64,000 nt of DNA, taken from positions 1-64,000 of the IMG/VR virus record IMGVR_UViG_3300037470_000126, one strand, 5' to 3'. The position numbers and the translations under genes are program-made. The notes beneath the pieces were generated by a model. The model worked only from the letters and a program-made list of their open reading frames with translations. It was not told the DNA's origin and ran no database searches. Positions 10,623-44,102 of the stretch are shown piece by piece. This DNA is from a virus (lineage: Duplodnaviria; Caudoviricetes). The first letter of the stretch is position 1. Every line of letters begins with the position of its first letter.

Positions 10623-12134
10623 ATGGCCAAGACGGTCTACCGCTTCAAGACAAGGCCCTACGCTCATCAGAAGGAGGCCCTTCGTAAGCTCATAAGCAAC
10701 CGCTATGGCGGAGCATTGCTCATGGAGCCACGTACAGGTAAGACCAAAACCACCATCGACTATATGTCCATGCTCCACATGAAGCGTGGCGTACGTCGAT
10801 TCCTCGTGGTTTGCCCGACACGAGTCATGGGCGTATGGGCCGAGGAGCTCCACAACCACTGCCCGTACATGGTCCAGACGATCATCTGGGACTCTCGCAC
10901 GCGGCGCAAGATGCCTACGCTCCCGGACAGTCTCGGACCGTACGACATGCAGGTGGTGGTAATCAATTACGAGGCCTTTGCCACACCAGGCAGGAAGCTC
11001 CCGTCTGGTCGTCGCTCCAAGGCTACGGGGCGGTTCAAGACGAGGAAGACCCTGCTAGACTGGTCCAGCCTTGGGGGAGACCGCAAGAACGACCGTAACA
11101 CCTGCATGATCCTGGACGAGTCGCACAAGATCAAGAGTCCATCTGGTAAGGCGGCCATGATGGTCGTGTCCATGCAGGGGTATTTTGGCTGGCGGGTGAT
11201 CCTCACCGGCACGCCTGTCACCAAGGCCAAGAAGATCGCCGACCTCTACATGCAGTGGAAGTTCCTAAATCCCGCGCGTCTCCGTGAGCTGGGCATCCAG
11301 ACCCATGCTGACATGCAGGACATGACGGGGAAGTGGATCGACCGCAATGGCTACCCACAGTTTGTGGGAACCAAGCGTCAAGGTCTGGACGCGGTCCATG
11401 CAGCGATTTTCAAGGACTCCTACGCCATCAAGCGGTCAGAGTGCTTTGACCTGCCGCCCCGCGAGAACATCCGCGAGTATGTACGGCTCAAGGGCGAGAG
11501 TGCGCGGGTGTACGACCAGCTAGCCGAGGAGATGGTCGCCAGACTGGAGAACGGCGAGATTACGGAGGCATCCATCGCTCTCGTCCTCGCTCTCCGTCTG
11601 TCACAGATCACAGGTGGCACGACCAAGACCACGGAAGGCAACATCGTCCGTGTCGGCAAAGAGAAGCTGGACGCTCTCAAACCCCATCTAGAGGACGCTC
11701 TGGACCGAGAGGAAAAGCTGGTCATCGCCGCACGGTTCAAGTCAGACATGGACGCTATCGCCAGCATGGCCTCACGTCTCGGCCTGAAGGTGTGGCAGAT
11801 CCGCGGAGGCGTCAAGCGAGCGGAGTCCGACGAGGCAATCCGTGAGTTCCGCAAGCACGATGACGCCGGCGTGATGGTTGTCCAGCCGCAGGCCGCATCC
11901 CTCGGCATCGACCTGAGCACGGCGTCCAAGATGATCTGGTTTTCCCTCACCCCGTCATACGTGGACTTCACTCAGTGCTGCGACCGGATCGCCCTGTCCA
12001 GAAACTCAACCACGTTCGTGTTTCTCCTTGCCGCGGGTACGGTGGACGAACTCCTCATGGAGACCCTGGAGAATGATCACGATGTAGCACAGATGATCAT
12101 CACATCGCCCGAGAAGCTTCTTAGGACCAAGTGA
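10623..12134 (+). CDS. SNF2/DEXD-family helicase
   Basis: MEPRTGKT (motif I), ILDESH (II), LTGTP (III), LGIDL (V), QCCDRI (VI). Confidence 0.93.
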   Translation: MAKTVYRFKTRPYAHQKEALRKLISNRYGGALLMEPRTGKTKTTIDYMSMLHMKRGVRRFLVVCPTRVMGVWAEELHNHCPYMVQTIIWDSRTRRKMPTLPDSLGPYDMQVVVINYEAFATPGRKLPSGRRSKATGRFKTRKTLLDWSSLGGDRKNDRNTCMILDESHKIKSPSGKAAMMVVSMQGYFGWRVILTGTPVTKAKKIADLYMQWKFLNPARLRELGIQTHADMQDMTGKWIDRNGYPQFVGTKRQGLDAVHAAIFKDSYAIKRSECFDLPPRENIREYVRLKGESARVYDQLAEEMVARLENGEITEASIALVLALRLSQITGGTTKTTEGNIVRVGKEKLDALKPHLEDALDREEKLVIAARFKSDMDAIASMASRLGLKVWQIRGGVKRAESDEAIREFRKHDDAGVMVVQPQAASLGIDLSTASKMIWFSLTPSYVDFTQCCDRIALSRNSTTFVFLLAAGTVDELLMETLENDHDVAQMIITSPEKLLRTK

Positions 12135-12640
12135 TGCCCCTTATCGAGGAGGGACAACTCACCCTTGAATGTTCCGATTGCAAAGAGGAGTTGCCCATCG
12201 AGAGGTTCCGAATAGAGCACAAGGAGGCTTATCCGGACTGTAGTTACCGCAGCAAGCGGTGCGATCCTTGCCGACGTGCGTGGCGTATGGGTGCTGCGGA
12301 CAGGAAAGCTCTTAACCTGGCCCGAGGTACCACGAGAGTAGTCAATCCCCGGGCCACGTTCTATGCCAGAGGTAGAGTATATGGTCTTACTCCTGACGCC
12401 CTGGATCAACTGGTTGTGGATTCATGCGGCCTCTGTGCCGTCTGCCTAAACCAGTTCGCTCGAATTAGGGAACCACAGATCGACCACTGTCACGCCACGA
12501 ACGTGGTTAGGGAATTGCTGTGTCAGAAGTGCAATCTCCTAGTGGGAGCTATTGAGAATAGCCCTAAGGATCTCCGAGCTGCCGTTAGGTACATCAAGAA
12601 GCATCGAGCCGCAGAGAAGGGCGTATCGTCAACGACATGA
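12134..12640 (+). CDS. Endonuclease VII-family HNH (free-standing homing endonuclease)
   Basis: CSDC..C N-terminal finger; CAVC...IDHCHATNVVRELLCQKCNLLVG; lower-GC codon usage; overlaps both neighbours. Confidence 0.9.
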   Translation: MPLIEEGQLTLECSDCKEELPIERFRIEHKEAYPDCSYRSKRCDPCRRAWRMGAADRKALNLARGTTRVVNPRATFYARGRVYGLTPDALDQLVVDSCGLCAVCLNQFARIREPQIDHCHATNVVRELLCQKCNLLVGAIENSPKDLRAAVRYIKKHRAAEKGVSSTT

Positions 12641-13251
12641 GCACACGCAGCAATCGGCACGTAGTGGTAGAGGGACCTGACGGCGCGGGCAAGTCGACCG
12701 TTGTCAAGCACCTGTCCACGATCACCGACACTCCCGTGGCACGTCGTATCTCCGATTCCATCCGTGGCGTAAAGGGGAAGGATCTCCAGGCGTACGTCAA
12801 CCAGGACATGGGCGAGTGGGCGAACTACGCGTCCGCCGACCCCCAGGTCAACCGGTCGACCTACTCCTCGTTCCACACCCACCGTTCGTCGCACATCTAC
12901 GACCGTTACCCGCTCATCTCCGAGCCGATCTATGGTCTCCACGTGCGCAAGTCGCCGCAGCCGGCATTCCTCACCGGCTGGTATCGAGACAAGTGGCGGG
13001 AGTTCCTGGCCCATGACCCGCTCGTGATCTGGTGTCTCCCGCCGTACGACGAGGTAGCCAAGCATGTGCACCCGGACAGGGATATGGACGGCGTCTGGTC
13101 GAACCTATTGCCGCTGTACCGTGCGTACACGTTCGCGGCCCTCACGTTCCCCGGCAAGTCCATCGTGTACGATTACACCAGCGACGAGCCGGGTGGCATG
13201 TCCGAGCCTGGCGATATCGTCGCCGCCGTCTCCCGTCATTTCGAGCAGTGA
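12637..13251 (+). CDS. P-loop (deoxy)nucleoside monophosphate kinase, thymidylate-kinase-like
   Basis: VVEGPDGAGKST; DRYPLISEPIYG. Confidence 0.85.
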   Translation: MSTRSNRHVVVEGPDGAGKSTVVKHLSTITDTPVARRISDSIRGVKGKDLQAYVNQDMGEWANYASADPQVNRSTYSSFHTHRSSHIYDRYPLISEPIYGLHVRKSPQPAFLTGWYRDKWREFLAHDPLVIWCLPPYDEVAKHVHPDRDMDGVWSNLLPLYRAYTFAALTFPGKSIVYDYTSDEPGGMSEPGDIVAAVSRHFEQ

Positions 13252-13259
13252 GGACCAAC

Positions 13260-14015
13260 ATGACCAACCCCGACCCGATTGAGAACGCCCTCCGTGAGTT
13301 CTCCTGGGACAACTACGGCATGGACGGCGTCTCGTACGCACTGGACGCGGACCCCGACGCTCAGGAATGGGTGCCGGATCTCGCCAAGAAGATCCGCGGT
13401 GCCATCGCCGAACGCTCGGTCGACCCCACGCCGGCTTTCTCCCAGCGGATCGCTCTGGGCGCCTCTCAGGACCCGAACGAGGTTCGTACACCCTTCGACA
13501 TGCTCCGGCAGGTGTTCGCGTCTCAGGACCACTTCCAGCGCCTCCTGGGGTACAACCGTGACGACATGACGGTGGAAGAGAGGGTCGAATACCTCAAGGG
13601 TCAGATCATGGCTCTCCAGGCAGAGACCGTCGAGGCTCTGGACGAGATGAGTTGGAAGCCGTGGACTCACGGCGAGAAGTTCGTCAACAGGGAGGCCATG
13701 GCGGGGGAGTTGGCGGACATCTTCTGCTTCCTCGTGAACATCGCCTGGGGTATCAGCCTCACCGCCGAGGACTTCTACACGTACCACCAGGAGAAGGCCC
13801 TCCGCAACATCAAGCGGCAGGAGGACAAGTACGACGGCGTCCAGGACAAGTGCCCCGGCTGTCGGCGTGATATCAACGACCTCAAGGCCAAGAACATTCC
13901 CGTTGGTACGCTCGGGGGTGTAGACTACTGCTCTCCGGAGTGCATCGTGAAGGTGAACCCCCACATGGACGGTTCACTCCAGAGTTCCATGTTCCACACC
14001 AACCAGGAGTCCTGA
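13260..14015 (+). CDS. All-alpha dNTP pyrophosphatase (dimeric dUTPase/dCTPase, MazG-like)
   Basis: ETVEALDE.SWKPW; ELADIFCF; K...N..RQ...Y. Confidence 0.85.
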   Translation: MTNPDPIENALREFSWDNYGMDGVSYALDADPDAQEWVPDLAKKIRGAIAERSVDPTPAFSQRIALGASQDPNEVRTPFDMLRQVFASQDHFQRLLGYNRDDMTVEERVEYLKGQIMALQAETVEALDEMSWKPWTHGEKFVNREAMAGELADIFCFLVNIAWGISLTAEDFYTYHQEKALRNIKRQEDKYDGVQDKCPGCRRDINDLKAKNIPVGTLGGVDYCSPECIVKVNPHMDGSLQSSMFHTNQES

Positions 14016-14019
14016 ATCC

Positions 14020-15072
14020 ATGGCGCATCTCTTCCAGTCCCCGACGGCCAATGACCTCATGCGGGACGTGACCACTCGCCTGGTCTACGGAGCCCACCCC
14101 GACGCCGCGGCCGACTTGCCCGCCGGTGAACAGCCTGTGGACATGGTCTCGTCCGTGGACACGCACCTCCTGAACGTCGTGGCCGAGGCCGACTCGTTCC
14201 AGTGGGGTTTCAATCTCAAGGACGCATGGCTGACCAAGGCCAGGTTCAACACCCTTATCCGCCAGTACATCGACCCTGTAGCCACGGAGAACTGGCTGGA
14301 CACTGTCCAAGCCAAGCTCGGCAAGCGCAAGCGGGGCACTGCCGTCATGCGTACGAACCTCGTCCAGAAGCGCGGCAACACGAACCGGCCCAGCCGACAG
14401 TGGGGCTCCTGTATGCTGGCGATCTCGTTCCGCCGCGTACCTGTGCCCCAGATCACGCTGTACTCCAGGACCTCGTACTTCGGGTACATCGGATACCTGG
14501 ACATGACCGCGGCTCACGTTCTCGCCAGGGAAGTCTCCAAGCGGGTCGGAGTCCCTGTCGAGGACATGAGGTTCGTGTGGCAGATCGAGGACGCCCAGTG
14601 GAGCTGGAAGTCCCTCTCGTACATGTTCCAGTCCGAGGAGCGTGCACAGCGCCTCTGGCGGGCGCGTGAGGAGCTAATGGACGACGAACAGGCCGACATC
14701 CTGTACGAGCGTCACCCGGGTCTGTTCGTCGCCGCTCTGTGGTTCGACCGCTTCCTCCTGGAAGACGAGGAAAACGTTAAGTACGGCGACATGACCTGGG
14801 GTGGCTGTGCGCGTGTGCGCCGGCGCTATCACACCGAGGTTCACGGCCCCCAGTTCGGCAAGAAGTGGGAGGGCTGGGATGGTGTGGGAAAGCTTCGCGG
14901 TCAGTCCAAGACCTTCCCGCCGCTGCCCTCGTGCCACTCGGACACCCTCGACCTGTCCGCCCTGCGGAAGCTCAAGAAGGAGCCGTCCGAGGAAGAGCGG
15001 GCGACCATGGCCAACTTCACTGAGGACGGGTGCGAATGCCTGTATGGAGACACGGGGGCCGAGGACGTATGA
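14020..15072 (+). CDS. Divergent thymidylate-synthase-fold protein
   Basis: GSCMLAISF...ITLYSRTSYFGYIGYLD parallels the TS core PC...QF...L...RSxDxxxGxxxN/D; catalytic Cys retained; Asp at the base-specificity position. Confidence 0.65.
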   Translation: MAHLFQSPTANDLMRDVTTRLVYGAHPDAAADLPAGEQPVDMVSSVDTHLLNVVAEADSFQWGFNLKDAWLTKARFNTLIRQYIDPVATENWLDTVQAKLGKRKRGTAVMRTNLVQKRGNTNRPSRQWGSCMLAISFRRVPVPQITLYSRTSYFGYIGYLDMTAAHVLAREVSKRVGVPVEDMRFVWQIEDAQWSWKSLSYMFQSEERAQRLWRAREELMDDEQADILYERHPGLFVAALWFDRFLLEDEENVKYGDMTWGGCARVRRRYHTEVHGPQFGKKWEGWDGVGKLRGQSKTFPPLPSCHSDTLDLSALRKLKKEPSEEERATMANFTEDGCECLYGDTGAEDV

Positions 15073-15974
15073 CCATTCGAGAGAGCTGGCCGTCCGCTCG
15101 CTATGACTTTGCCATGCGTCTGTTGGCAGCGGATCCGGTCTACGTCGGCGAGTGGCAGTCACAGAAAGACGTGACCGGCGCCAACACCACATACGAGGTG
15201 CTTAACGCCTCGTTCCAGATGCCTATGCCCCAGACCGCGGAAGAGGCCGCTCGGGTCGTCGGCGCGAACCTCCCGTGGGCCGAGGATCACTTCCAGGAGC
15301 GTGTCGGGGGAAAGCCTCTCAACCCTCCGCCGTCGAATGCATGGTGGCCGTTCAATGTAGACGGCAACGCCCTGCACAAGGCAGAGGACAAGTTCTCCCA
15401 CACCTACCCCGAGCGTTACTGGCCGAAGTTCGCCAACGTCGGTGAGACCCGGCCGAACGGCCGTCAGGTATTCGTTCCGCACAACGGGGTCCGATTCGAG
15501 TACGGCGACCTGGGTGACGTGGTGGATCTTCTCCAGCGCTCTCCGTACACGAGGCAGGCATATCTCCCCGTGTGGTTCCCGGAAGACACTGGCTCGGTCG
15601 ACGGGCAGCGTGTGCCGTGCACTCTCGGCTATCAGTTCATCATTCGCGAGGGTGCAGCCGGCAAGCGTCTCCATATCATCTACAACATGAGGTCCTGTGA
15701 CTTCATGCGCCACCTGGCGGATGACATCTACATGACCATCCGTCTGGCTCAGTGGGTGCGTGACCGTCTGCCGTCGGAGTACGACGACGACCCGGACAAC
15801 CCGTTCGCCGGCATGACGCTCGGGACTCTGTACTTCCACGCCGGCTCGCTCCACATCTTCGAGCCGGACAGGCACGCCCTCGCGGTGATCGTGAAGGACA
15901 TGACCTCGGCGTACACCAGCCGTCTCACCCAGTACGCCAGCGGCAACGGAGGTCCCACGACTGATGAAGCCTAA
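15069..15974 (+). CDS. Thymidylate-synthase-family enzyme, probably dCMP hydroxymethylase/methylase
   Basis: TRQA..W; VPCTLGYQF; NMRSCDFMRHLADD, with Asp at the position equivalent to E. coli TS Asn177, as in T4 gp42. Confidence 0.85.
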   Translation: MTIRESWPSARYDFAMRLLAADPVYVGEWQSQKDVTGANTTYEVLNASFQMPMPQTAEEAARVVGANLPWAEDHFQERVGGKPLNPPPSNAWWPFNVDGNALHKAEDKFSHTYPERYWPKFANVGETRPNGRQVFVPHNGVRFEYGDLGDVVDLLQRSPYTRQAYLPVWFPEDTGSVDGQRVPCTLGYQFIIREGAAGKRLHIIYNMRSCDFMRHLADDIYMTIRLAQWVRDRLPSEYDDDPDNPFAGMTLGTLYFHAGSLHIFEPDRHALAVIVKDMTSAYTSRLTQYASGNGGPTTDEA

Positions 15975-16104
15975 CCGAGACACGACACTGATGGGTGTGG
16001 CACGCCTCTGGGCGGAACACTCCACGTGCTCTCGTCTGGCGGTAGGAGCGGTCATCTCTCGGGATGGCCGCTCCTTCTCGACCCACTCCAAGGACACCCG
16101 ATGA
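15964..16104 (+). pseudogene. Truncated 5' fragment of dCMP deaminase
   Basis: MKPNRDTTLMGVARLWAEHSTCSRLAVGAVISRDGRSFSTHSKDTR* aligns with the N-terminus of 16510-16974 and stops just before GYNG. Confidence 0.85.
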
Positions 16105-16529
16105 CAACTGAAACACCCGATTCCAAGGTTTGCCGCGGTTGCAGAAAGGTGCTGCCCTTTGATCAGTTCCACAGGGCAGCTAAATACCGCTCGGGTTTGG
16201 CTAGTCAGTGCAAGGCCTGCAAGGCAAAGCGTCAAAAGGCTCGTGGCCAACAGGCTCAACAACTGAGGCATAGGTACGGCATTGACTTGCCCGAATATGA
16301 GGCCCTGGCCCAAGCACAAGATCACAAATGTGCCATCTGCCTACAGCCGGAAACCCGTCGGCACAGGTTCGGCGATGAACCCAAGAGCTTGGCCGTGGAC
16401 CACGACCACGGGACCGGCCGAGTAAGGGGGTTGTTGTGTGACAACTGCAACAACATGCTGGGCCGGGCAAAGGACAACCCCGACATCTTGAGAAGGGCGG
16501 CCGAGTACCTTGAGACCCCCCAGGGATGA
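16101..16529 (+). mobile_element. Endonuclease VII-family homing endonuclease inserted in the dCMP deaminase locus
   Basis: CRGC...CKAC; CAIC...VDHDHGTGRVRGLLCDNCNNMLG; ATGA overlap with the fragment's stop. Confidence 0.9.
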
Positions 16530-16974
16530 AATCCTCATGGGCATGGCCCATTTGATTTCACAACGATCCACATGCTCCAGGCTAAACGTGGGAGCCGTCA
16601 TTTCCCAAAACGGCCGAACAACCTCGATGGGCTACAACGGAGCACCCGCTGGCCTGCCTCATTGTGACCACGACGAGTGCACGTGCCGTTACGAGGGGGG
16701 ACACCTCCTTGGTGGCGACCCGATGTGTCCCAAGCATGGGGCCTGCCGCACCGCGGTACATGCAGAGGCTAACGCCCTCGCGTTCGCCGCTAGGTTCGGA
16801 CTAGGCACTGAAGGTGCAGAGCTTCACACCACCCACCAGCCATGTCTGACATGCGCCATGTCCATCATCAATGCGGGTATCATCCGCGTGGTATTTGAGA
16901 ACCCGTACAGGGATAACGGGGGCCTTCTTCTTCTCCATCACGCCGACCTAACCGCAGAGAAGCTAGTACGGTGA
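16510..16974 (+). CDS. dCMP deaminase (ComEB/cytidine-deaminase family)
   Basis: STCSRLNVGAVI, GYNG, HAEANA, PCLTC. TTG start at 16510, or ATG at 16537. Confidence 0.92.
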   Translation: MRPPRDEILMGMAHLISQRSTCSRLNVGAVISQNGRTTSMGYNGAPAGLPHCDHDECTCRYEGGHLLGGDPMCPKHGACRTAVHAEANALAFAARFGLGTEGAELHTTHQPCLTCAMSIINAGIIRVVFENPYRDNGGLLLLHHADLTAEKLVR

Positions 16975-16978
16975 TCTC

Positions 16979-19555
16979 GTGACTTCTCCTCCCCTGAAAC
17001 TCCTACCCGTCACGTCCAAAGTGCGGGACTCATCATGTGACCTGTGTGTCATGTCGTCGTCGGCGACCGCCAAGGACGTCTGTGTGACTGCTCAGGGCTC
17101 TATGAAGGCGACGCCTAAGTATCTGGTCGTCGGGAAGTTCCCGCCGTCCGAGGGAGCGTACAGGGAGCTCCGTACGTATCTCGAAGAAGTCGGGCTCAAC
17201 CCGGATGAGGCGATCTTTACCGGCGCGGTCAAGTGTCGGACGTGGGATGCATCTCCCACACGCACCGTCGTGAAGGCGTGCGCTCCTTACCTGCACCGGG
17301 AGCTAGCTCTCCTGCCTGACACGGTGACTCACGTTCTCGTCATGGGTAACGAGGCTCTCCAGGCGACGCTCGGTAAGTCGGGGATCACCAAGTACCGGAG
17401 TAAGGAATACGACCTGCCGGCAGGACTCCGTACTCTCACGGCTATCCCCACGATCGCTCACACCGCGGTCAAGAGGAATCCAGGTCAGTATTCCGGCTTC
17501 ATGGCGGACCTCAAGTTCTTTGCCGCCTCAGCAACCGGGGGTGATGCTGGTGGGGTCAAGCCGCCCAAGAAGATCCGGTACGTCCTCGACAAGCTGACTC
17601 TCCGTGCTCTCCGTACTGCGCTGGAGAATGCCGAGGTGGTCTCGTATGACATCGAGTCGGCCTCGGATCACCCCGGCTTCCTGGAGAAGGACCCGTCCTC
17701 GAAGATCGTGTCCATCGCGTTCACGATCATGTCCAAGGAGAGGAAGCTGTCCGTCTGGGCTCTCCCGCTGTACCACCCGGGATCACCGTGGCGGAACGTC
17801 TGGGAGCGTGTCCTAGACTTCATCCGAGACGCGTTCTCACGGGTACGGAAGTCGATTGCCCATAACGGCAAGTTCGACAACCGCTGGTTGCGTCAGTGGG
17901 GTGTGGAACGTTATCTCACCTTCGACACCATGCTGGCCGCTCATCTCCTGGACGAGAACCGGCGGAAGTCTCTCAAGGAACTAGCCCACATGGAACTGGG
18001 AGTTCCTAACTGGGCCATCGAGACCAAAGAGCTCCTAAAGACTCCCATCATGGAGGTCCTGGAATACAACGCCCTGGACACGTGGTACACGTACTGGCTC
18101 TACCGCAAGTTCCGTTCCCAGCTCAATGAACAACCGAGGCTCCGCCGCATCTTCCAGCGGTTCTACATGCCAGCAGCCAACGAGTTCACGGACATTGAGC
18201 GGCGCGGTGTCTGGATGGACCGCGAACGTCTCGTGACGAGGCACCAAGAAGCCAGGCGCCAACTGGCTGAGGTAGATGCCAAGATCATGGAATACGTGCC
18301 TGAGGATCAACCGTTCCGCACGTATCTCCGAGATGGTACCCTCAAGAACACTGGGATCAATTTCAACCCATCGAACTTTCTCCGGTGGCTTCTGTACGAA
18401 CACCTGGAATTGCCTGTCTTCCGACGCGGCAAGGAGAAGGACGACGGTACCCCGGGTGACCCCTCTGTGGCTGAAGGCGTCATGATGGAACTGGCAGAGA
18501 TCCATCCTGTTGCCCAGCTTCTTCTGGATCGTGTGAAGTGGAACAAATTCTGTTCCTCCTTCTTCGCGGCCTACCTGGAGCTCATTGACGACAACGACCG
18601 CATCCACACCACATTCAAGCTCCACGGCACAACCACTGGGCGTCTCTCGTCGGGCAAGGAGAATGACGGCGATAAGATCTCCGCTAAGAAGCAAATCCGC
18701 GGAATGAACGTCCAGCAGATCCCCCGAGACAAGTTCATCCGCGGTCTAGTCGGTGCACCCCCCGGTTCGTATTTCGTGGAGTTCGACTATTCCCAGGTTG
18801 AGCTCCGCGTGGCTGCCGAACTGTCCAAAGAGCCCACCATGATCCACTTGTACCAGACAGGCCAGGACATCCACATGGCTATGGCTATGCAGATGACCGG
18901 GAAGCCCGCGCATCTGGTCACGAAGGAAGAGCGGAAGAAAGCCAAGTCCGTGAACTTTGGCTTCCTCTATGGTATGCAGTGGAAGAAGTACATCCAGACG
19001 GCGTGGGAAAGCTACGGGCTCCGGGTCACCGAGGCAGAGGCCCAGGCATTCCGTCAAGCGTTCTTCCAGCAATTCCCGGAGCTTCTCGTCTGGCACCGCA
19101 AACAGCGGCAGCTAGTAGCTAAGTACGGGCGCGTAGAGAGCCCTCTCGGGCGCGTTCGTCACCTGCCTGACGTCTACTCGCCGGACCGTGAAGTGAAGTC
19201 CGAGGCAGAGCGTCAGGCGATTAACTCGCCGGTCCAGTCGTTCGCCTCTGACCTCATCCTGATATCCCTGGTGATTGCCCACAAGAAATTCCGAGAGATG
19301 GGACTCCAGGCTCGTGCCATCGGCACAGTCCATGACGCCATGATCATGGAAGTGCCGGCACATGAGATGTCCACCGTTCTCCCGATGGTCAAGGAGATCA
19401 TGGATAATCCACCCCTAGAAGAGTGGTTCGGCATTCACATGTCCGTACCCCTCGTGGCAGACTGCAAGGTAGGAACTCACTGGGGCGACGCTATCGAACT
19501 AGAGGAGGCACAGACACTCAACTGGGACCCGAGCATCCTGACACAAGCCGCGTAA
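16979..19555 (+). CDS. polA: Family A DNA polymerase with N-terminal UDG family 4-like domain and 3'-5' exonuclease
   Basis: Exo motifs YDIES, HNGKFD, YNALD; Pol motifs DYSQVELR, KSVNFGFLYG, VHDA; N-terminal CDLC..AVKC-x14-C. Confidence 0.95.
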   Translation: MTSPPLKLLPVTSKVRDSSCDLCVMSSSATAKDVCVTAQGSMKATPKYLVVGKFPPSEGAYRELRTYLEEVGLNPDEAIFTGAVKCRTWDASPTRTVVKACAPYLHRELALLPDTVTHVLVMGNEALQATLGKSGITKYRSKEYDLPAGLRTLTAIPTIAHTAVKRNPGQYSGFMADLKFFAASATGGDAGGVKPPKKIRYVLDKLTLRALRTALENAEVVSYDIESASDHPGFLEKDPSSKIVSIAFTIMSKERKLSVWALPLYHPGSPWRNVWERVLDFIRDAFSRVRKSIAHNGKFDNRWLRQWGVERYLTFDTMLAAHLLDENRRKSLKELAHMELGVPNWAIETKELLKTPIMEVLEYNALDTWYTYWLYRKFRSQLNEQPRLRRIFQRFYMPAANEFTDIERRGVWMDRERLVTRHQEARRQLAEVDAKIMEYVPEDQPFRTYLRDGTLKNTGINFNPSNFLRWLLYEHLELPVFRRGKEKDDGTPGDPSVAEGVMMELAEIHPVAQLLLDRVKWNKFCSSFFAAYLELIDDNDRIHTTFKLHGTTTGRLSSGKENDGDKISAKKQIRGMNVQQIPRDKFIRGLVGAPPGSYFVEFDYSQVELRVAAELSKEPTMIHLYQTGQDIHMAMAMQMTGKPAHLVTKEERKKAKSVNFGFLYGMQWKKYIQTAWESYGLRVTEAEAQAFRQAFFQQFPELLVWHRKQRQLVAKYGRVESPLGRVRHLPDVYSPDREVKSEAERQAINSPVQSFASDLILISLVIAHKKFREMGLQARAIGTVHDAMIMEVPAHEMSTVLPMVKEIMDNPPLEEWFGIHMSVPLVADCKVGTHWGDAIELEEAQTLNWDPSILTQAA

Positions 19556-38053: not shown

Positions 38054-38321
38054 ACCCCTCAAGGTCTGTTTCCAGTTCGTCACCAAGGGCGGCGCGGTGA
38101 TGGACACGGAGCCTGAAGAGTTCCCGAACATCCAGGCCGCCACCAAGCGGGCCCAGGAATGGATGGAGCTCAAGGGACGGGTCCTAGCCTTTACATCATT
38201 CGAGGGCTACGGCGTCAGTATGCGGACAGACGAGATCGAGCATATTACCGCCATGCCCGCAGCAAAGATGGCCGAGCTATTCGACGCGGCCTCCACGGAA
38301 GGATTCCCGACCAATGAGTAA
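38034..38321 (+). CDS. Hypothetical protein
   Basis: GGAGGT RBS then TTG; overlaps the next start. Confidence 0.65.
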   Translation: MTAHTSEPLKVCFQFVTKGGAVMDTEPEEFPNIQAATKRAQEWMELKGRVLAFTSFEGYGVSMRTDEIEHITAMPAAKMAELFDAASTEGFPTNE

Positions 38322-39366
38322 GACCCTGTTCCTCACGGGAGCCTCCGGTTTTGTGGGGTCCGCTGCTCTCCAGCACGTTCTGGAGAACACGGACTGGCGG
38401 GTCATCTGCCCCACGACCATGCGCCACTACGGGGACCAGTCCAGGCTAGTGGAGCTCCGCGAGAAGTACGGCGAGCGTGTCCACGTCGTCCCCTGCGACC
38501 TTGCCATGCCGTTCCACCCTGAGCTGTTCGGCCTCGACGGTCCGGGCTCCGTGGACTTCATCTGGAACATCGCCTCGGAGTCTCACGTCGACCGCTCCCT
38601 AGGCGACCCTGAGGGCTTCATCAGGAACAACATGGAGCTTATGCTTAACGTCCTGCGGTTCGCCATTGACGTCAAGCCGAGGCTGTTCCTGCACATGAGC
38701 ACCGACGAGGTGTTTGGCCCGCAGTACGACGGCGACTCTCCCCACACGGAGTGGTCCTCGATCAAGCCCAGCAATCCGTACAGTGCGAGCAAGGCGGCCC
38801 AGGAAGCCATCGCCTACTCGTACTGGAGGGCATACGGCATCCCACTGGTGATCACGAACACCATGAACCTCATCGGGCCTCGGCAGCACCCGGAGAAGTT
38901 CGTCCCCAAGATGATCCGCGCCCTCAAGGCCGGCGAGCCGCTGACTATCCACTCTAACCCGGACGGTGAGAGCGGGACCAGGTGCTGGATCGGTATCGAG
39001 GACTTCGCCAATGCGTGGCTGTGGCTAACGCGGAAGTTTGACCTCATCACCCAGTCGTCGGCACACGCGGATCACCTCACTTACTACCCGTCCATGCCGC
39101 GAGAGCCTCACCGGTTCAACATCGTGGGCCAGCGTGCGTCGAACCTGGAAGTAGCGGAACTCCTCGCCGAGATCATGGGTGTGGAAGAGCCGGACATTCA
39201 GATGGTGAACTTCCACACCAGCCGGCCGGGACACGATATGCACTACGGCCTAGACGGATCCAAGCTAGCCCACTTCGGCTGGACCCCGCCGTCGAACCTC
39301 ACGGACCGCCTGATCGAGACCGTCCACTGGTACCAGGACTTCCCCTCTGCTCTGGAGACACGGTGA
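38314..39366 (+). CDS. NAD-dependent NDP-sugar 4,6-dehydratase/epimerase (RmlB-like extended SDR)
   Basis: TGASGFVG; ASESHVDRS; STDEVFG; PSNPYSASKAA; NTMNLIGPRQHPEKFVP; RPGHDMHY. Confidence 0.92.
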   Translation: MSKTLFLTGASGFVGSAALQHVLENTDWRVICPTTMRHYGDQSRLVELREKYGERVHVVPCDLAMPFHPELFGLDGPGSVDFIWNIASESHVDRSLGDPEGFIRNNMELMLNVLRFAIDVKPRLFLHMSTDEVFGPQYDGDSPHTEWSSIKPSNPYSASKAAQEAIAYSYWRAYGIPLVITNTMNLIGPRQHPEKFVPKMIRALKAGEPLTIHSNPDGESGTRCWIGIEDFANAWLWLTRKFDLITQSSAHADHLTYYPSMPREPHRFNIVGQRASNLEVAELLAEIMGVEEPDIQMVNFHTSRPGHDMHYGLDGSKLAHFGWTPPSNLTDRLIETVHWYQDFPSALETR

Positions 39367-39776
39367 ACCCGCCTCTATACCTCGTAGGTTCGTGGGGTAT
39401 CGGTAAGTCCACCGTGGCGAACCAGCTAGGTATCCCCCACCTGGATCTGAGTAAGGACCTGAATCTCCCCGACACAATCGACCAACCGAGGCTGGTGTGG
39501 GAGAATATGATCAAGCCCGCTCTAGCCTACTCCGAGTTGCGGGGCGGCATGGTCATCTCCGTAGGTTCCCGGTGCATGGTCGGGGATGATGAGCGGGAGT
39601 GGGCACTCCGTGATTGGCTGGCTGATCTTAGCCCCCGAGTGGTTAGGCTAACTGGGGAACCCCGGCGGCCGTTGACTCGGTGCGAGGAGGCTATCCTGCC
39701 CGTTGCGGGTAAGTCAGTTCCTGCCCGCCCTCGGAGTGAAGCGGTAGCCCGGATCAAGGAATGGTTTTCACTATGA
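39363..39776 (+). CDS. Small P-loop kinase-like protein
   Basis: LVGSWGIGKST. Confidence 0.7.
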   Translation: MNPPLYLVGSWGIGKSTVANQLGIPHLDLSKDLNLPDTIDQPRLVWENMIKPALAYSELRGGMVISVGSRCMVGDDEREWALRDWLADLSPRVVRLTGEPRRPLTRCEEAILPVAGKSVPARPRSEAVARIKEWFSL

Positions 39777-40318
39777 CCACGTTCTATCTCGTAGGCTCAT
39801 CCGGAGTAGGTAAGACGACCACCGCGGGACTTCTGGCCAAGCGGGGGGTCTGTGTCCATCGTGAGGCGAGCACAGAGTCCAGGAACAAGGCTGGTGCCAA
39901 GTGGCACAAGTCGCCTGAGACCGACTGGCAGATCATCCAGCCGGTGCTGACTGACATGGAAGCTCACCAGGGATCCCTTCCCCTCATGGTTGTACTAGGA
40001 GCCGGCACACAGCTATACGGTCAGTTGAACAACCGGGCTATCCAGAAGTGGCTGGACTCTCGAAAGGACCGGGTGATCTGGCTACAGTCTTCCCACGAGG
40101 AAGCTTACCGTCACTACCGGGAGCGGGCGGTTAAGCACCGTCACGGGGCCAGTAAGACCTTCCCCCAGTTCGTCAAGGTCGAGTTTGATCCGCTCCGCAC
40201 CGACCTGTATTCCGTAGCAGGCCTGAGGGTGGACGTCAACGGGCAGACAGTCAGCCAGACAGCAGACGCGGTAACCAGCCTGATCAACCAGTACGGGAAG
40301 GCTTCGAACCATGCATAA
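39773..40318 (+). CDS. Small P-loop kinase-like protein (shikimate/adenylate-kinase fold)
   Basis: LVGSSGVGKTT; VIWLQSS; RVDVNG. Confidence 0.75.
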   Translation: MTTFYLVGSSGVGKTTTAGLLAKRGVCVHREASTESRNKAGAKWHKSPETDWQIIQPVLTDMEAHQGSLPLMVVLGAGTQLYGQLNNRAIQKWLDSRKDRVIWLQSSHEEAYRHYRERAVKHRHGASKTFPQFVKVEFDPLRTDLYSVAGLRVDVNGQTVSQTADAVTSLINQYGKASNHA

Positions 40319-41105
40319 GATCCTGGACGCCCTCGCCGCCGGCAACTTCCATGAGCCGCTGGAAGCTAACCCCCTCCGAGCCATGGGAGTTGGTCTCCCC
40401 AGTGATGAGGGCTACCAGGCCCTCCAAGAGGAGGTCCGGTATATCATGGCTCATCTGTCCCCGTCTCACGTGGCATCCAAGGGCCATGGTACTAACTGGA
40501 CCAAGCCGGTGGGGCAGGTGCGACAGTGGTCCCTCTTCAACACCCACAGGGACACGAGCAACACCAGCGACGATTTCAACTACCACAACATCCCCGACAA
40601 GCGACCCGTTCCCGGGTACAGCTTCCTCGGGAAGATGTGCCGAACTCTGCCGAGTCTGGTGAACATGCGGCTTAACGCCATGTCGCCTGGCGGTGCCTTG
40701 TCGCCCCATGAGGAGCACCTACCGATCGCCATCGGCTCAGACAAGGTGGCTTTCCGTTGCCGCTTCCACCTCCCTGTGTTCACCAACCCAGAATCGGTCA
40801 TGCTGGCCGACGGGGACCTGTTCCACTTCCAGGGAGGCAAGGTCTATGCCTTCAACAACGGGTGTATCCACTCCGCGAAGAACGACGGCGGCAGTGAGAG
40901 GGTACACCTGGTCTGGGACCAGCTCATGACCGAGCGGGCTATCCAAGCCATGTTTGATGGTGACCGAACTCCGTCCTGGCTCATCTCTGCCGTCCAGCCG
41001 ATCAACCCGGTGGGTCACCTGGATGTGACCAAGTTCCAGCCGTCAGGCGGCATGAAGCGCCAGGAGTTCGACCGCCGTCGAGTCGTGTTCCACCCGGGGG
41101 TCTGA
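40311..41105 (+). CDS. Aspartyl/asparaginyl beta-hydroxylase-like 2OG-Fe(II) oxygenase
   Basis: MSPGGALSPHEE; RFHLP; FNNGCIHSAKNDGGSERVHLVWD. Confidence 0.85.
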   Translation: MHKILDALAAGNFHEPLEANPLRAMGVGLPSDEGYQALQEEVRYIMAHLSPSHVASKGHGTNWTKPVGQVRQWSLFNTHRDTSNTSDDFNYHNIPDKRPVPGYSFLGKMCRTLPSLVNMRLNAMSPGGALSPHEEHLPIAIGSDKVAFRCRFHLPVFTNPESVMLADGDLFHFQGGKVYAFNNGCIHSAKNDGGSERVHLVWDQLMTERAIQAMFDGDRTPSWLISAVQPINPVGHLDVTKFQPSGGMKRQEFDRRRVVFHPGV

Positions 41106-41106
41106 C

Positions 41107-41763
41107 ATGACCAGTATCGGAATGTGGTGGTTCAGACCGTCCGCTGGTACCACCAACTTCGGGGATGAGCTAGGTCCACAGATTGTCACCCGTCTGGGTT
41201 ACGAGGTCCATCGGGTCCCTCTCGAACAAGCGGACCTAGTAGGCTGCGGGAGCATCCTAGGCATTGTGGACGCGAAAGCCAAGCCTGGTACCATAGTGTG
41301 GGGATCCGGCCTGATCATGCCCACGGACAACATGAGGGCCAAGAGATTCAACGTCAAGGCAGTGCGAGGCGTGATCTCAGCACGTCGGTTGGGTGTGGAA
41401 GTTCCTCTTGGTGATCCAGGCATCCTGGTGCCCCTGCTGTGGCCTCGAAAGGTTAACCCCCGTCACCGCATCGGGGTTATCCCTCACTACGTGGATAAGA
41501 ACCGGTATGCCTGGGCGGACAAGGTAATCAATCCCAAGTCACCGGTAGACCAGGTTATCGAGGAGATCCAGTCGTGCCACACCATCGCCTCGTCTAGTCT
41601 CCACGGGCTCATCATCGCCGAAGCCTACGGCATTCCTGCCGTCCGCCTTTACCACCCAAAGGTAGTCGGGGATGAGTTCAAGTGGGTGGACTACATGAGC
41701 GCGTTTGCCGGCACGTCTATGTCAGAAGCGCAACGGGGGTTGATTAGGGCGCTTGAATCATGA
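41107..41763 (+). CDS. Polysaccharide pyruvyltransferase (ExoV-like)
   Basis: NFGDEL; GSIL; WGSG; AVRG; GDPG; IPH; SSSLHGLIIAEAYGIP. Confidence 0.88.
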   Translation: MTSIGMWWFRPSAGTTNFGDELGPQIVTRLGYEVHRVPLEQADLVGCGSILGIVDAKAKPGTIVWGSGLIMPTDNMRAKRFNVKAVRGVISARRLGVEVPLGDPGILVPLLWPRKVNPRHRIGVIPHYVDKNRYAWADKVINPKSPVDQVIEEIQSCHTIASSSLHGLIIAEAYGIPAVRLYHPKVVGDEFKWVDYMSAFAGTSMSEAQRGLIRALES

Positions 41764-42398
41764 GTGAGCTAGAGATCCTAGACAGTATCACTGTGGTGAT
41801 CCCCGTACACCCCGAACGTGTCCGTAACGGTATGCTAGAGCGTGCTCTTAGCTCTGTGAGAAGTCAGACACTGCCGGCGGACGAGATCATCGTGGTTGAG
41901 GACCATGAGGGTCAAGGAGCCGCCAGGACCCGCCATCAAGGCCTCATGGAAGTAACCTCCGAATGGGTGGCCTTCCTGGACTCCGATGATGAGTTCCTGC
42001 CTCGTCACCTGGAGAGGCTCATGGCTTGTGCCCAGGAGACCGAGGCGGACTTTGTATACTCGTGGTACAAGATCAAAGGTGCCTCGGATCCCATGCCTAA
42101 CCGCTTCGGCAAGGCATGGAACCCAGATAAGCCCGCCCTAACCACCATTACCGTAATGGTTAAGACCCAGCTAGCCCAACGAGTGGGTTTTCACCCTGAC
42201 CCCAACCGCGTTAAGAATAGCGGTGAGGACATGATGTTTGTCCGCGGGTGTAACAGTCTGGGTGCTAAGATTGTGCATCTCCCAGAGAGGACCTGGGTAT
42301 GGCACCATCACGGCGGCAACACATCAGGCCTGAACACTCGGGGTGACGCGGTACCACCAGCACCCGTCAAGGGGCGTAAGAAGGGAAGGAGGAAGTAA
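41760..42398 (+). CDS. GT2-family glycosyltransferase
   Basis: VVIP; AARTRHQGL; VAFLDSDD; GED. Confidence 0.88.
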   Translation: MSELEILDSITVVIPVHPERVRNGMLERALSSVRSQTLPADEIIVVEDHEGQGAARTRHQGLMEVTSEWVAFLDSDDEFLPRHLERLMACAQETEADFVYSWYKIKGASDPMPNRFGKAWNPDKPALTTITVMVKTQLAQRVGFHPDPNRVKNSGEDMMFVRGCNSLGAKIVHLPERTWVWHHHGGNTSGLNTRGDAVPPAPVKGRKKGRRK

Positions 42399-42994
42399 TG
42401 GACATCACGGTTATCATTCCTACGATCCCCAGCCGTAAGGAGAGACTGTACGAGGCGATGGCGTCTGTTAGCTCCCAGACCAAGCCAGCTACTAGCATCA
42501 TCATCCAGGCTGATCTGAACTGGGAAGGTTCAGCGGAGACGAGGAACAGGGCCCTGAAAGCTGTCAGGACGCCGTGGGTCGCCTTCCTAGACGACGACGA
42601 CTCATTCCTTCCGCATCACCTAGAGAGGCTGTCTCAGGCGCTCTCAGACGCCCAGGCGGACGTGGCGTACCCTCTGCCCCTGGTGCTGGACAAGAACGGC
42701 AGGAAGATCCCGAGGCAGAGGGATTGGGGTGGCGGCCCCGAGTTCAGCGGCGAGACACTGGAACAGCGGTCGTACATCAACATCTGTTCAGTGGTCCGCA
42801 CAGAGCTAGCGGTGGGTGTGGGAGGGTTTGAGTTCGTCCGAGGATCTACCGGCCAGCTTAACGACGACCATGGTTTCTATCTCAAGCTATACCGAGCTGG
42901 TGCCAAGTTCGTCCATGTTCATGAGCCTACTTTCATCTGGAATCACCACGGTGGAAACACCTCGGGCCAACCCGGTAAAGGAGATGCCGCATGA
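42398..42994 (+). CDS. GT2-family glycosyltransferase (paralog of 41760-42398)
   Basis: VIIP; SAETRNRAL; VAFLDDDD; both end W.HHGGNTSG..GDA. Confidence 0.88.
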   Translation: MDITVIIPTIPSRKERLYEAMASVSSQTKPATSIIIQADLNWEGSAETRNRALKAVRTPWVAFLDDDDSFLPHHLERLSQALSDAQADVAYPLPLVLDKNGRKIPRQRDWGGGPEFSGETLEQRSYINICSVVRTELAVGVGGFEFVRGSTGQLNDDHGFYLKLYRAGAKFVHVHEPTFIWNHHGGNTSGQPGKGDAA

Positions 42995-43455
42995 GGGTTT
43001 TCCTGGGCGGCTGGTCTGGCACGGGAAAGACTACGGTGGGCAATTACCTAAGATCTCATGGATGGGTACATGTGGACGTGGAGGATATGTTCCACACCAG
43101 CCCTCGATCCTTCGGGACCTTTATTCGTAATCCCGCAGTGTGGCTTAGTGACAGGACTTACCCCACCGACGACGTGGTCATAACCTGGGGCTACGGTCGA
43201 GAGGGCAAGCCAACCGTTGGGCGGATTCTGGACATCGGGTTCAAGCCAGTTTGGCTGACGGGAGACCTTAAGCACAGCCTGGCCAATAGAGCCCGACGGG
43301 GGGACAAGATCCAGCACCGACCAGACCTTGAGAGACTACAGGAGGTAGAATACCTCAAGGCGGGTTACACCTGGACTAACATCCAGGTCTTTCACCCAGA
43401 TGGTACAATGCTAGCCACAAAGGAAGTGGCTGACATGGTATGTGACGCGGAGTAG
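42991..43455 (+). CDS. Small P-loop kinase-like protein
   Basis: LGGWSGTGKTT. Confidence 0.7.
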   Translation: MRVFLGGWSGTGKTTVGNYLRSHGWVHVDVEDMFHTSPRSFGTFIRNPAVWLSDRTYPTDDVVITWGYGREGKPTVGRILDIGFKPVWLTGDLKHSLANRARRGDKIQHRPDLERLQEVEYLKAGYTWTNIQVFHPDGTMLATKEVADMVCDAE

Positions 43456-43463
43456 GGGATTAA

Positions 43464-44102
43464 ATGTTCGTGGTAACTGGCTCTGGCCACTCGGGGACGG
43501 GCTGGGCATCCGAGTTCTTCACCCAGTTAGGATTCCCGTGCGGCCATGAGGAGTGGTTCAACGAGAGGCTTTACCGGGGCATGAGGACTTCGGACGCCTC
43601 TTGGGCGGCTGTACCTCGTCTGGCCGTGATCGGTGATGCCCCGCTGATTCTGCTCCTACGGGACCCGCTGGCTGTCGTCCAGTCGTTCCTACGGTCGGGA
43701 ACTTACCGGAGCCCTAACACCTCGTGTGTCATGACTCGGTACACTTACGACCAGCTCCCCAGTCTCAAGTCTACTCCGGATGAGCTGGGGCGGTGCATCG
43801 TGAGAACTGCCGACTGGGACATGCCGGCGCAGAGCCATCACCTTCTCATGACCCTCCGCATTGAGGACATGGCCCTAAACTCTCCCGACTGGTGGGACGA
43901 GGTCAGCGCCATGGTCCGATTTGTTACCGGTGAGACCGTGAGCGAGGATAAAGCCGGTCAGGTTCTGTATGACCTGGGCAAGAACTACAACGCCCACGCC
44001 CGGGACGCTCGGGTGGATCTGTCGTGGGAAGACATCCTGAAGCACCCGCTGGGATACAAGCTGGTGGAGCGGGCCACACAATTCGGATACGAGGTGAACT
44101 AG
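43464..44102 (+). CDS. Sulfotransferase-like protein
   Basis: TGSGHSGT (5'-PSB-like loop), GHE, LLRDPLAVVQS (3'-PB), LRIED. Confidence 0.75.
   Translation: MFVVTGSGHSGTGWASEFFTQLGFPCGHEEWFNERLYRGMRTSDASWAAVPRLAVIGDAPLILLLRDPLAVVQSFLRSGTYRSPNTSCVMTRYTYDQLPSLKSTPDELGRCIVRTADWDMPAQSHHLLMTLRIEDMALNSPDWWDEVSAMVRFVTGETVSEDKAGQVLYDLGKNYNAHARDARVDLSWEDILKHPLGYKLVERATQFGYEVN

Follow-up and report, generated by a model that had tools for sequence, protein, structure and literature searches.

Organization of the cassette

We analysed a group of nucleotide-metabolism genes, two of them with a thymidylate synthase (TS) fold, which lies upstream of the DNA polymerase gene in a tailed phage (Caudoviricetes; IMG/VR record IMGVR_UViG_3300037470_000126) and may supply a modified cytosine for DNA replication. 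The record is a complete genome of 82,368 bp (CheckV 100%), and its first 64 kb form the stretch studied here, hereafter the window. The cassette DNA is approximately 80% identical to that of the Streptomyces phages KimJongPhill and Zuko (genus Zukovirus), the sequencing runs carrying the stretch are sediment and soil metagenomes, and we regard the virus as a soil Streptomyces-type phage. No RNA run is found among the runs listed for the stretch, none of which is informative on DNA modification. The genes and features of the locus are as follows (dCMP, deoxycytidine monophosphate; ORF, open reading frame; NTP, nucleoside triphosphate).

10623–12134, + strand: SNF2-family helicase, upstream neighbour of the module (PF00176 1.3e-19; PF00271)
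12131–12640, + strand: Endonuclease VII/HNH-type ORF preceding the kinase (PF02945 1.1e-17)
12637–13251, + strand: TMPK-like nucleoside-monophosphate kinase (phrog_761 ‘thymidylate kinase’ 3.3e-12)
13260–14015, + strand: all-alpha NTP pyrophosphatase of the dimeric-dUTPase/T4 gp56 family (PF08761 31.9 bits; phrog_18650 4e-25)
14020–15072, + strand: unannotated protein, hereafter TS-fold 1 (fold match of an AlphaFold2 model; phrog_13667 ‘unknown function’)
15069–15974, + strand: ThyA-family protein with a cytosine signature, hereafter TS 2 (PF00303 25.3 bits)
15964–16104, + strand: inactive 5' remnant left by an older dCMP deaminase gene; a stop follows after 46 codons
16026–16529, + strand: Endonuclease VII/HNH-type ORF between TS 2 and the deaminase (PF02945 3.3e-25; phrog_2633 3.7e-40)
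16510–16974, + strand: intact dCMP-family deaminase (PF00383 5.7e-21)
16979–19555, + strand: family A DNA polymerase (PolA) with a 3'-5' exonuclease and an N-terminal UDG-like domain (PF00476 2.9e-79; PF01612 5.4e-13; PF03167 1.3e-8)

An earlier reading made from the letters alone (the sequence-only reading) had described a contiguous block of kinase, pyrophosphatase, two TS-fold genes and deaminase. The ORF listing and family scans bear out all five gene types at these coordinates on the + strand; strict contiguity does not hold, since an HNH ORF and a deaminase remnant split TS 2 from the deaminase. Indeed, the translation of the remnant follows the N-terminus of the KimJongPhill deaminase until just before the GYNGAP motif, where it stops, and the remnant overlaps the TS 2 stop codon, as does the intact deaminase gene of KimJongPhill. 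The functional deaminase, starting at 16510, has a complete N-terminus of its own, and the HNH ORF at 16026–16529 has no counterpart at this place in KimJongPhill, Muddy or Serratia phage Serbin, in which the five genes are uninterrupted. The segment 15964–16529 thus looks like a homing-endonuclease insertion that duplicated the 5' end of its target. The HNH ORF at 12131–12640, which overlaps the SNF2 helicase and the kinase by 4 nt each and is missing from this place in KimJongPhill, is likely an inserted homing endonuclease too. As read directly from the sequence, the HNH ORF/kinase and TS-fold 1/TS 2 junctions are ATGA overlaps, and the other cassette junctions are gaps of 8 and 4 nt, each with a GAGGA or AGGAG box ahead. 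General annotation resources add little: NCBIfam holds no equivalog for any cassette protein, and searches of the ESM Atlas retrieved only viral hypothetical clusters and one cluster bearing PF00303.

Cytosine signature of the ThyA-family enzyme

TS 2 scores barely above the PF00303 cut-off (24.3 bits). In a profile search against the PDB, its best match is MilA, the Streptomyces CMP 5-hydroxymethylase of mildiomycin (5.6e-9), followed by T4 dCH (3.3e-6), both above every ThyA chain. The AlphaFold2 model of TS 2 (mean predicted local distance difference test score, pLDDT, 76.5) gave a concordant picture, Foldseek placing MilA first (9e-11) and ThyA chains behind it (1e-9), with a probability of 1.00.

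The sequence-only reading had rested on the motif RSCDFMRHLADD, with Asp at the position of Asn177 of canonical TS. The motif is present, and its register is kept in three independent hidden Markov model alignments (to Lactobacillus casei TS, MilA and T4 dCH), so that the proposed Asp is borne out: D219 corresponds to N177, together with R208 for R166 and D211 for D169. TS 2 was also aligned to Escherichia coli ThyA, Xp12, PaMx74, T4 gp42 and SPO1 gp29, and the equivalences agree; in E. coli ThyA numbering, R181, C184, T185, R208, S209, D211, D218, D219, H262 and F264 of TS 2 stand for L143, C146, H147, R166, S167, D169, F176, N177, H207 and Y209, respectively. The equivalents of the catalytic Cys146, the phosphate-binding Arg166-Ser167, the folate-binding Asp169 and His207 are invariant across the reference alignment. 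Among 42 homologues of TS 2, all these equivalence residues are invariant except T185 and S209, each conserved in at least 90%; D219, in register with D179 of T4 and the Asp of MilA, is among the invariant ones.

These positions have a documented meaning. N177D confers dCMP specificity on TS, and 177 and 147 are the positions most associated with modification in metaviromes (PMC8670742); N177 is also given as the dCMP-switch position in PMC13326640, where D169N goes with 5-hydroxylation. TS 2 keeps Asp169 as D211 and is therefore without the D169N signature of the 5-hydroxy-dCMP synthases (RB69 gp48, DLP3 gp80 and AfhB). Because it combines Asp at 177 with a retained Asp169, the published residue rules support a cytosine-directed TS 2 and predict that it would not be a 5-hydroxy synthase.

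By contrast, GenBank annotations of the homologues describe an ordinary set comprising a TS converting dUMP (deoxyuridine monophosphate) to dTMP (deoxythymidine monophosphate), a dUTPase, a thymidylate kinase and a dCMP deaminase. We consider such a set highly improbable here: apart from the marginal PF00303 score, the homologues invariably carry Asp at the N177 position and, in at least 90% of cases, Thr at that of H147, N177D/N229D mutants of true TS become dCMP methylases according to literature cited in PMC8670742 (PDB entry 1njc is among the hits of TS 2), and dTMP synthesis is already covered by a separate ThyX (see below).

A further peculiarity concerns the equivalent of Tyr209, which in ThyA contacts the 3'-OH of the sugar. 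This position is Phe in TS 2 (F264), Muddy, Serbin and a metagenomic relative, and Tyr in E. coli, T4, SPO1, Xp12 and PaMx74.

A second, unannotated thymidylate synthase fold

TS-fold 1 (350 aa) has no sequence match in Pfam, NCBIfam or the PDB, including a profile search against the PDB. Its AlphaFold2 model (pLDDT 86.3) nevertheless matches TS-fold enzymes only. Foldseek retrieved the flavin-dependent dCMP hydroxylase AfhB (3e-6), and VIA gave a Z score of 15.3 to the dCMP hydroxylase 9iqu (root-mean-square deviation 3.6, 186 residues aligned), 14.4 to MilA and approximately 11 to many ThyA chains. In the model, residues 1 to approximately 205 form the TS fold and the remainder a predicted helical C-terminal extension. 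A sequence link between TS-fold 1 and TS 2 was rejected, as hhalign found no profile similarity between them (probability 0.3%); their relation is structural only.

The 45 diverse members of the TS-fold 1 family compared, down to approximately 20% identity, all have C131 and R150, and at least 90% of them have D161. Their spacing, with D161 lying 11 residues past R150, is that of Cys146, Arg166 and Asn177 of ThyA. The model places C131 just before the strand 132–138, R150 within the strand 144–153 and D161 in the first turn of the helix 157–176; from topology and spacing, we infer that the three residues are the counterparts of the ThyA triad. The equivalent of the folate-binding Asp169 is Tyr153, so that TS-fold 1, too, is without the D169N signature.

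An exhaustive profile search yielded 256 clusters at 50% identity for this family. In BFVD, the nearest neighbours are uncharacterised, one of them coming from Pseudomonas phage PMBT14. A Serbin ‘hypothetical protein’ at the same position aligns with TS-fold 1 over the active-site strands (hhalign E 7e-4), and the gene lies directly upstream of the Asp-type ThyA homologue in KimJongPhill, Muddy, Serbin and two metagenomic contigs. An identity with aGPT-Pplase was considered and rejected, since TS-fold 1 has a TS fold and PaMx11 gp46 is reported to have a different, helical one.

Kinase, pyrophosphatase, deaminase and thymidylate supply

The kinase has only below-cut-off matches in Pfam and NCBIfam. 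Its P-loop EGPDGAGK and its D89-R90...S95-E96..Y99 motif are kept in Muddy gp49 and Serbin gp53, and we take this DR..S..Y motif to be typical of thymidylate kinases. The same motif led us to reject an identity with 5-HMUDK, the kinase of thymidine hypermodification. The pyrophosphatase, above the cut-off of PF08761 (dUTPase_2; 22.9 bits), belongs to the family that also contains the T4 gp56 dCTPase/dUTPase, with which it shares a local match (4e-7 over 42 aa in pairwise BLASTP); the PaMx74 counterpart is a PRA-PH enzyme and not a PF08761 member. PDB sequence searches with either protein returned nothing usable.

The deaminase keeps the HAE and PCxxC motifs, and its best PDB match is the T4 dCMP deaminase 1vq2 (2.3e-20), well ahead of that of PBCV-1, which is described as the nearest structure to a 5-methylcytosine (5mC)-selective deaminase in the preprint bioRxiv 10.1101/2024.12.05.627091. 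The UDG-like domain of the adjoining PolA occupies 16979–17560, and the same fusion adjoins the deaminase in the metagenomic relative L025.

Outside the window, at 79622–80278 on the - strand, the phage encodes a ThyX (PF02511, 1.6e-47), also present in KimJongPhill and absent from Muddy, Serbin, T4 and Xp12. With a separate ThyX encoded, TS 2 is not needed for dTMP. A PF00303 search of the whole genome returned nothing, TS 2 included, which shows only that no canonical ThyA is present.

These enzymes could also be arranged into a pathway leaving the DNA canonical, in which abundant dCTP would be hydrolysed to dCMP, methylated to 5-methyl-dCMP by the Asp-type TS, deaminated to dTMP and phosphorylated, for the sole purpose of dTTP supply. 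Indeed, the same four enzyme types define both the 5-hydroxymethyluracil (5hmU) phages and the methylate-then-deaminate thymidylate route of the Xp12 type, and Xp12 makes its thymidine nucleotides via 5-methyl-deoxycytidine nucleotides (preprint discussion; Kuo 1982 as cited in the literature). The thymidylate-kinase motif is in keeping with such a route. So are the GC contents of Muddy, GTE2 and Serbin (0.52–0.60), phages for which no modification is reported. The present phage has a GC content of 60%, well below that typical of Streptomyces. However, TS 2 is without the Pro147 and aromatic 176 of the proven 5mC synthases, being hydroxymethylase-like at these positions; no DHFR (PF00186) is encoded in the 82-kb genome, whereas Xp12 and PaMx74 have one beside the TS; the detour would be redundant with ThyX and an ordinary-looking dCMP deaminase; and TS-fold 1 is given no role. 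All in all, this purely thymidylate-directed route appears rather unlikely.

Conservation of the module

The succession (helicase)-kinase-pyrophosphatase-TS-fold 1-TS 2-deaminase-PolA, after which come a PD-(D/E)XK nuclease and AAA_24, recurs widely. It is found in KimJongPhill, in Muddy (gp50-44, gp45 being the deaminase), in Serbin (gp54-46) and in a pair of distant metagenomic contigs, one with a PRA-PH-type pyrophosphatase; Zukovirus and Gordonia phage GTE2 are also among the carriers. The SNF2 helicase is likewise a neighbour in Muddy (gp50), KimJongPhill (gp74) and both metagenomic contigs. The module order is thus conserved across phages of Actinobacteria and Proteobacteria, and its recurrence in Muddy, Serbin, KimJongPhill and the two contigs indicates that the arrangement is not due to chance. 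By tblastn, TS-fold 1 was detected in 85 phage records, nearly all of actinophages, and TS 2 in 144.

This neighbourhood is associated with modified cytosine in metaviromes. According to bioRxiv 10.1101/2024.12.05.627091, an Asp-type TS adjoins a dCMP deaminase in 104 of 149 modified-cytosine contigs versus 17 of 277 unmodified ones; within 3 kb, the remaining top-ranked neighbours are PRA-PH, DNA_pol_A and the exonuclease of the latter. Adjacency of PolA and the deaminase fits the present module and not Xp12 or PaMx74, in which more than 5 kb separate the two genes. Thereby, the polymerase-adjacent cases of the metavirome study may be of the present type.

A possible modified cytosine and the evidence for and against it

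Taken together, these results lead us to view the block as a conserved phage module that would divert deoxycytidine nucleotides to a C5-substituted derivative before replication. In the proposed pathway, the gp56-family pyrophosphatase would convert dCTP and dCDP to dCMP, or remove dUTP, and TS 2 would transfer a one-carbon unit onto C5 of dCMP. TS-fold 1 would act with another cofactor on the same or a derived cytosine nucleotide, or serve as a partner subunit. The TMPK-like kinase would then phosphorylate the product for incorporation by the adjacent PolA, the dCMP deaminase and ThyX maintaining the dTMP supply. We estimate at roughly 45% the probability that a C5-modified deoxycytidine is made and incorporated to some extent, a figure that includes complete replacement as a subset. 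This reading is favoured by the cytosine signature and the likeness of the enzyme set to that of T4, by the conserved coupling to the polymerase, by the presence of an independent ThyX and by the association seen in metaviromes.

Several observations weigh against it. First, the L143-equivalent of TS 2 is an invariant Arg (R181), and not the Asp of T4 gp42, SPO1 gp29 and MilA; the position is Leu in ThyA and Asn in Xp12 and PaMx74, so that TS 2 matches neither. Secondly, neither the substrate of the kinase nor the specificity of the pyrophosphatase for dCTP, dUTP or dTTP is readable from sequence. Thirdly, for none of Muddy, GTE2, Serbin, PMBT14 and Zukovirus does the searched literature report modified DNA, and it does not connect Tlacuache, or the actinobacteriophages as a whole, with a hydroxymethylase or modified cytosine; within that literature, the lack of reports for Muddy and its relatives is absence of evidence only. 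Finally, the genome avoids restriction sites. Counts of 6-bp words on both strands were compared with the expectation of a maximal-order Markov model, and words with z below -3 were considered as purged. Eight of the 51 testable palindromes were purged in this genome, versus none of 3508 non-palindromes:

CTCGAG: observed 0, expected 27.5
TGTACA: observed 0, expected 17.8
CAGCTG: observed 1, expected 19.7
AGTACT: observed 0, expected 16.0
ACGCGT: observed 5, expected 22.3
ATCGAT: observed 0, expected 12.4
CTGCAG: observed 0, expected 10.2
GCATGC: observed 4, expected 16.2

The corresponding enzymes (XhoI, BsrGI, PvuII, ScaI, MluI, ClaI, PstI and SphI) are all blocked on 5-hydroxymethylcytosine (5hmC) DNA, and on 5mC DNA as well except for ScaI, which cuts partially (tables of Flodman 2020). 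A similar purge is seen in other carriers of the cassette (KimJongPhill 3/41, Muddy 5/44, GTE2 4/42).

The identity of the product of TS 2 depends in part on the first of these points. At positions 176 and 147, TS 2 has Asp (Asn in Muddy) and Thr, compared with Asn and Thr in T4, Ser and Thr in MilA, Ala and Asn in SPO1, Phe and His in E. coli ThyA, and Tyr and Pro in Xp12 and PaMx74. On our own reading of these six reference sequences, which follows no published rule, TS 2 is hydroxymethylase-like here, and 5-hydroxymethyl-dCMP is therefore somewhat likelier than 5-methyl-dCMP. Asp or Glu at L143 goes with hydroxymethylation, however (PMC13326640; T4 dCH structure paper), and since an invariant Arg replaces this usual water-activating residue, another chemistry is possible. 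With low certainty, the residues lean towards a product of the hydroxymethyl type or one that is otherwise non-reductive. Of the sequence-only claim of a cytosine-specific, T4-like enzyme, the dCMP-type Asp177 (with Thr147) can be retained, whereas its identity as a hydroxymethylase is not established, owing to the Arg at the L143-equivalent.

How far the cytosines would be replaced was judged indirectly from the restriction sites, bearing in mind that the enzymes compared are commercial prototypes rather than those of the hosts, and that the genome sample is small. Palindromes with z below -3 were distributed as follows:

Cassette carrier Serbin: 2/40
Unmodified controls: phiC31 3/32, phiBT1 3/35, R4 7/39, L5 15/41, TM4 12/38
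Fully modified controls: Xp12 1/39 (TGATCA), PaMx74 0/34, T4 (100 kb) 1/55 (GATATC)

The T4 result supports the method, because the one site that T4 avoids is a site that its modification leaves unprotected: EcoRV (GATATC) cuts 5hmC (T4gt) DNA completely and T4 DNA very partially (tables of Flodman 2020). The sequence-only reading had proposed a complete, T4-like replacement of cytosine, perhaps glycosylated, shielding the DNA from restriction. The enzyme logic is that of T4 gp1/gp56/gp42/cd, with Asp177, and MetaGPA ties this gene neighbourhood to fully modified contigs. Moreover, GC-only 6-bp palindromes are not depleted in the four actinophage carriers (observed/expected ratio of 1.07 here, 1.02 in KimJongPhill, 0.99 in Muddy and 0.96 in GTE2) and are depleted in all five unmodified controls (0.47–0.92), which could hint at partial modification. 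GCCGGC, purged by phiC31 and TM4, is over-represented here (137 versus 103 expected), and GGCC is depleted (536 observed versus 688 expected). The genome is rich in sites for HaeIII, HpaII, NaeI and SacII, all of them enzymes that 5mC/5hmC blocks. Palindrome depletion also follows a gradient of GC content (2-GC below 4-GC below 6-GC); we regard this as ambiguous, since Xp12 and PaMx74 show it but so do R4 and TM4.

On the other hand, if 5mC, 5hmC or a bulkier base stood in for every cytosine of the injected DNA, a lineage would gain nothing by purging these sites, so that the purge argues against full replacement. Five C-containing palindromes are absent where 10–28 were expected, although their enzymes are unable to cut 5hmC DNA and four of the five are blocked on 5mC DNA, ScaI only partly; no such purge occurs in Xp12, PaMx74 or T4. 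In addition, Streptomyces has nucleases dependent on 5mC or 5hmC, such as ScoA3IV (PMC6212794). Complete replacement is accordingly unlikely, and the purge here and in three other cassette-bearing actinophages speaks indirectly against its genome-wide, restriction-protective form. These data suggest that any replacement of cytosine is partial or leaves the DNA unshielded, and is probably not total and protective as in T4.

The purge also resembles that of the unmodified actinophages phiC31, phiBT1 and R4, as would be anticipated for canonical DNA with a thymidylate-only route. It is compatible as well with a partial replacement of thymine by 5hmU, since 5hmU DNA (SP8) resists only approximately 8% of type II enzymes. 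In that scheme, TS 2 would make 5-hydroxymethyl-dCMP, the deaminase would convert it to 5-hydroxymethyl-dUMP and the TMPK-like kinase would phosphorylate the latter. Besides the shared enzyme types of hmU phages, bioRxiv 10.1101/2024.12.05.627091 reports that seven phage deaminases from TS-linked loci gave 5hmdU from 5hmdC in vivo. Against this, both the present phage and KimJongPhill encode ThyX, i.e. invest in dTMP, and no partner of the 5-HMUDK or aGPT-Pplase type was found, TS-fold 1 having a TS fold. We judge 5hmU to be quite improbable.

The coupling of TS-fold 1 to TS 2 raises the idea that the product of the two enzymes is a pyrimidine nucleotide so far undescribed in DNA, which we regard as doubtful: a one-carbon unit placed on C5 by TS 2 could be transformed by TS-fold 1, or a heterodimer could perform a new chemistry.

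The sugar-nucleotide/glycosylation cluster

A sugar-nucleotide and glycosylation cluster, which may act on virion proteins or on DNA, was observed at 38314–45085 on the + strand, just upstream of the packaging genes. It also includes two small P-loop proteins and a polysaccharide-pyruvyl-transferase-like protein, in addition to the following genes.

38314–39366, + strand: NAD-dependent epimerase/dehydratase
40311–41105, + strand: Asp/Arg-hydroxylase-like cupin
41760–42994, + strand: two GT2 glycosyltransferases
44024–45085, + strand: GT1/GT4 enzyme

The cluster would suit a glycosylated, completely replaced cytosine. However, it lies outside the conserved nucleotide module, as no glycosyltransferase is annotated among the 71 genes of Muddy, and its PHROG families are the generic ‘glycosyltransferase’. 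A function as a DNA glycosylation system is thus not established.

Significance of the module

Pre-replicative pyrimidine modification by TS homologues is already well known. The present variant adds an Asp177 enzyme whose L143-equivalent, Asp or Glu in hydroxymethylases and Leu in TS, is an invariant Arg, a coupled and unannotated TS-fold family of 256 clusters for which no Pfam model exists, and a genome-level signal of DNA exposed to type II restriction despite the module. Carriers of the module include phages that are in culture and easy to handle, namely Zuko, KimJongPhill, Muddy, GTE2/Emalyn, Serbin and PMBT14 (the last through a structural match of TS-fold 1). Since the mycobacteriophage Muddy is used in therapy, its DNA modification status bears on host range, sensitivity to host defences and engineering. 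Should the product be a thymidylate intermediate only, the methylate-then-deaminate route would extend beyond Xp12. In the unlikely case that the TS pair makes a new base, this base would be present, perhaps partially, in a widespread phage group that includes Muddy.

Comparison with known systems

Among systems acting on thymine, the 5hmU pathway of SPO1 (gp29 dUMP hydroxymethylase, dCMP deaminase, dTTPase/dUTPase and hmdUMP kinase) draws on these classes of enzyme, and the PolA of SPO1 likewise bears a UDG-like domain at its N-terminus; gp29 keeps Asn at 177, whereas TS 2 has Asp, and the present phage also has ThyX. Thymidine hypermodification (5-HMUDK and a helical DNA transferase of the aGPT-Pplase type) also uses an Asn177 dUMP hydroxymethylase, unlike the Asp177 enzyme found here beside a TS-fold neighbour.

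Other relatives are found among enzymes of cytosine nucleotides. MilA is the best match of TS 2 by both sequence profile and fold, and the flavin-dependent dCMP hydroxylases include RB69 gp48 and AfhB (HY126), the latter being closest in fold to TS-fold 1. All three act on cytosine nucleotides, at sequence identities of 9–19%. MilA has Asp at L143 where TS 2 has Arg, and the 5-hydroxy synthases have D169N where TS 2 keeps Asp and TS-fold 1 has Tyr.

The Xp12/PaMx74 (Pamexvirus-type) 5mC module resembles the present one in its pre-replicative logic and in the order pyrophosphatase-TS (Asp177)-deaminase. It differs in the TS residues (Asn143, Pro147 and Tyr176), in carrying DHFR and a PF01503 pyrophosphatase instead of a PF08761 enzyme with no DHFR in the 82-kb genome, in having neither a second TS-fold gene nor an adjacent kinase, in the distance of PolA (more than 5 kb) and in showing no restriction-site purge (0–1 palindromes). 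The MetaGPA neighbourhoods of ‘TS(Asp177) + in-cis dCMP deaminase + PRA-PH + DNA_pol_A’ (Yang 2021; 2024 preprint) have the same domains, with PolA beside the deaminase; in the sections of these papers seen, neither a second TS-fold gene nor any actinophage is described, and the characterised examples made 5mC.

T4 offers a further parallel in its hydroxymethylcytosine pathway (gp56 dCTPase/dUTPase, gp42 dCMP hydroxymethylase, gp1 dNMP kinase and cd dCMP deaminase). It has the same four enzyme classes and a separate thymidylate synthase (td, here ThyX); gp42 resembles TS 2 in having Asp at N177 and Thr at H147, gp56 belongs to PF08761 like the cassette pyrophosphatase, and Cd is the best solved relative of the deaminase. 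The differences lie in Asp145 of gp42, at the L143-equivalent where TS 2 has Arg, in Tyr209, which is Phe in TS 2, in the extra TS-fold gene and the clustering beside a family A polymerase, and in the avoidance of restriction sites, which T4 does not display. Thereby, the likeness of the enzyme set to gp1/gp56/gp42/cd stands, whereas a total, protective replacement of the T4 type agrees poorly with the purged palindromes of this genome.

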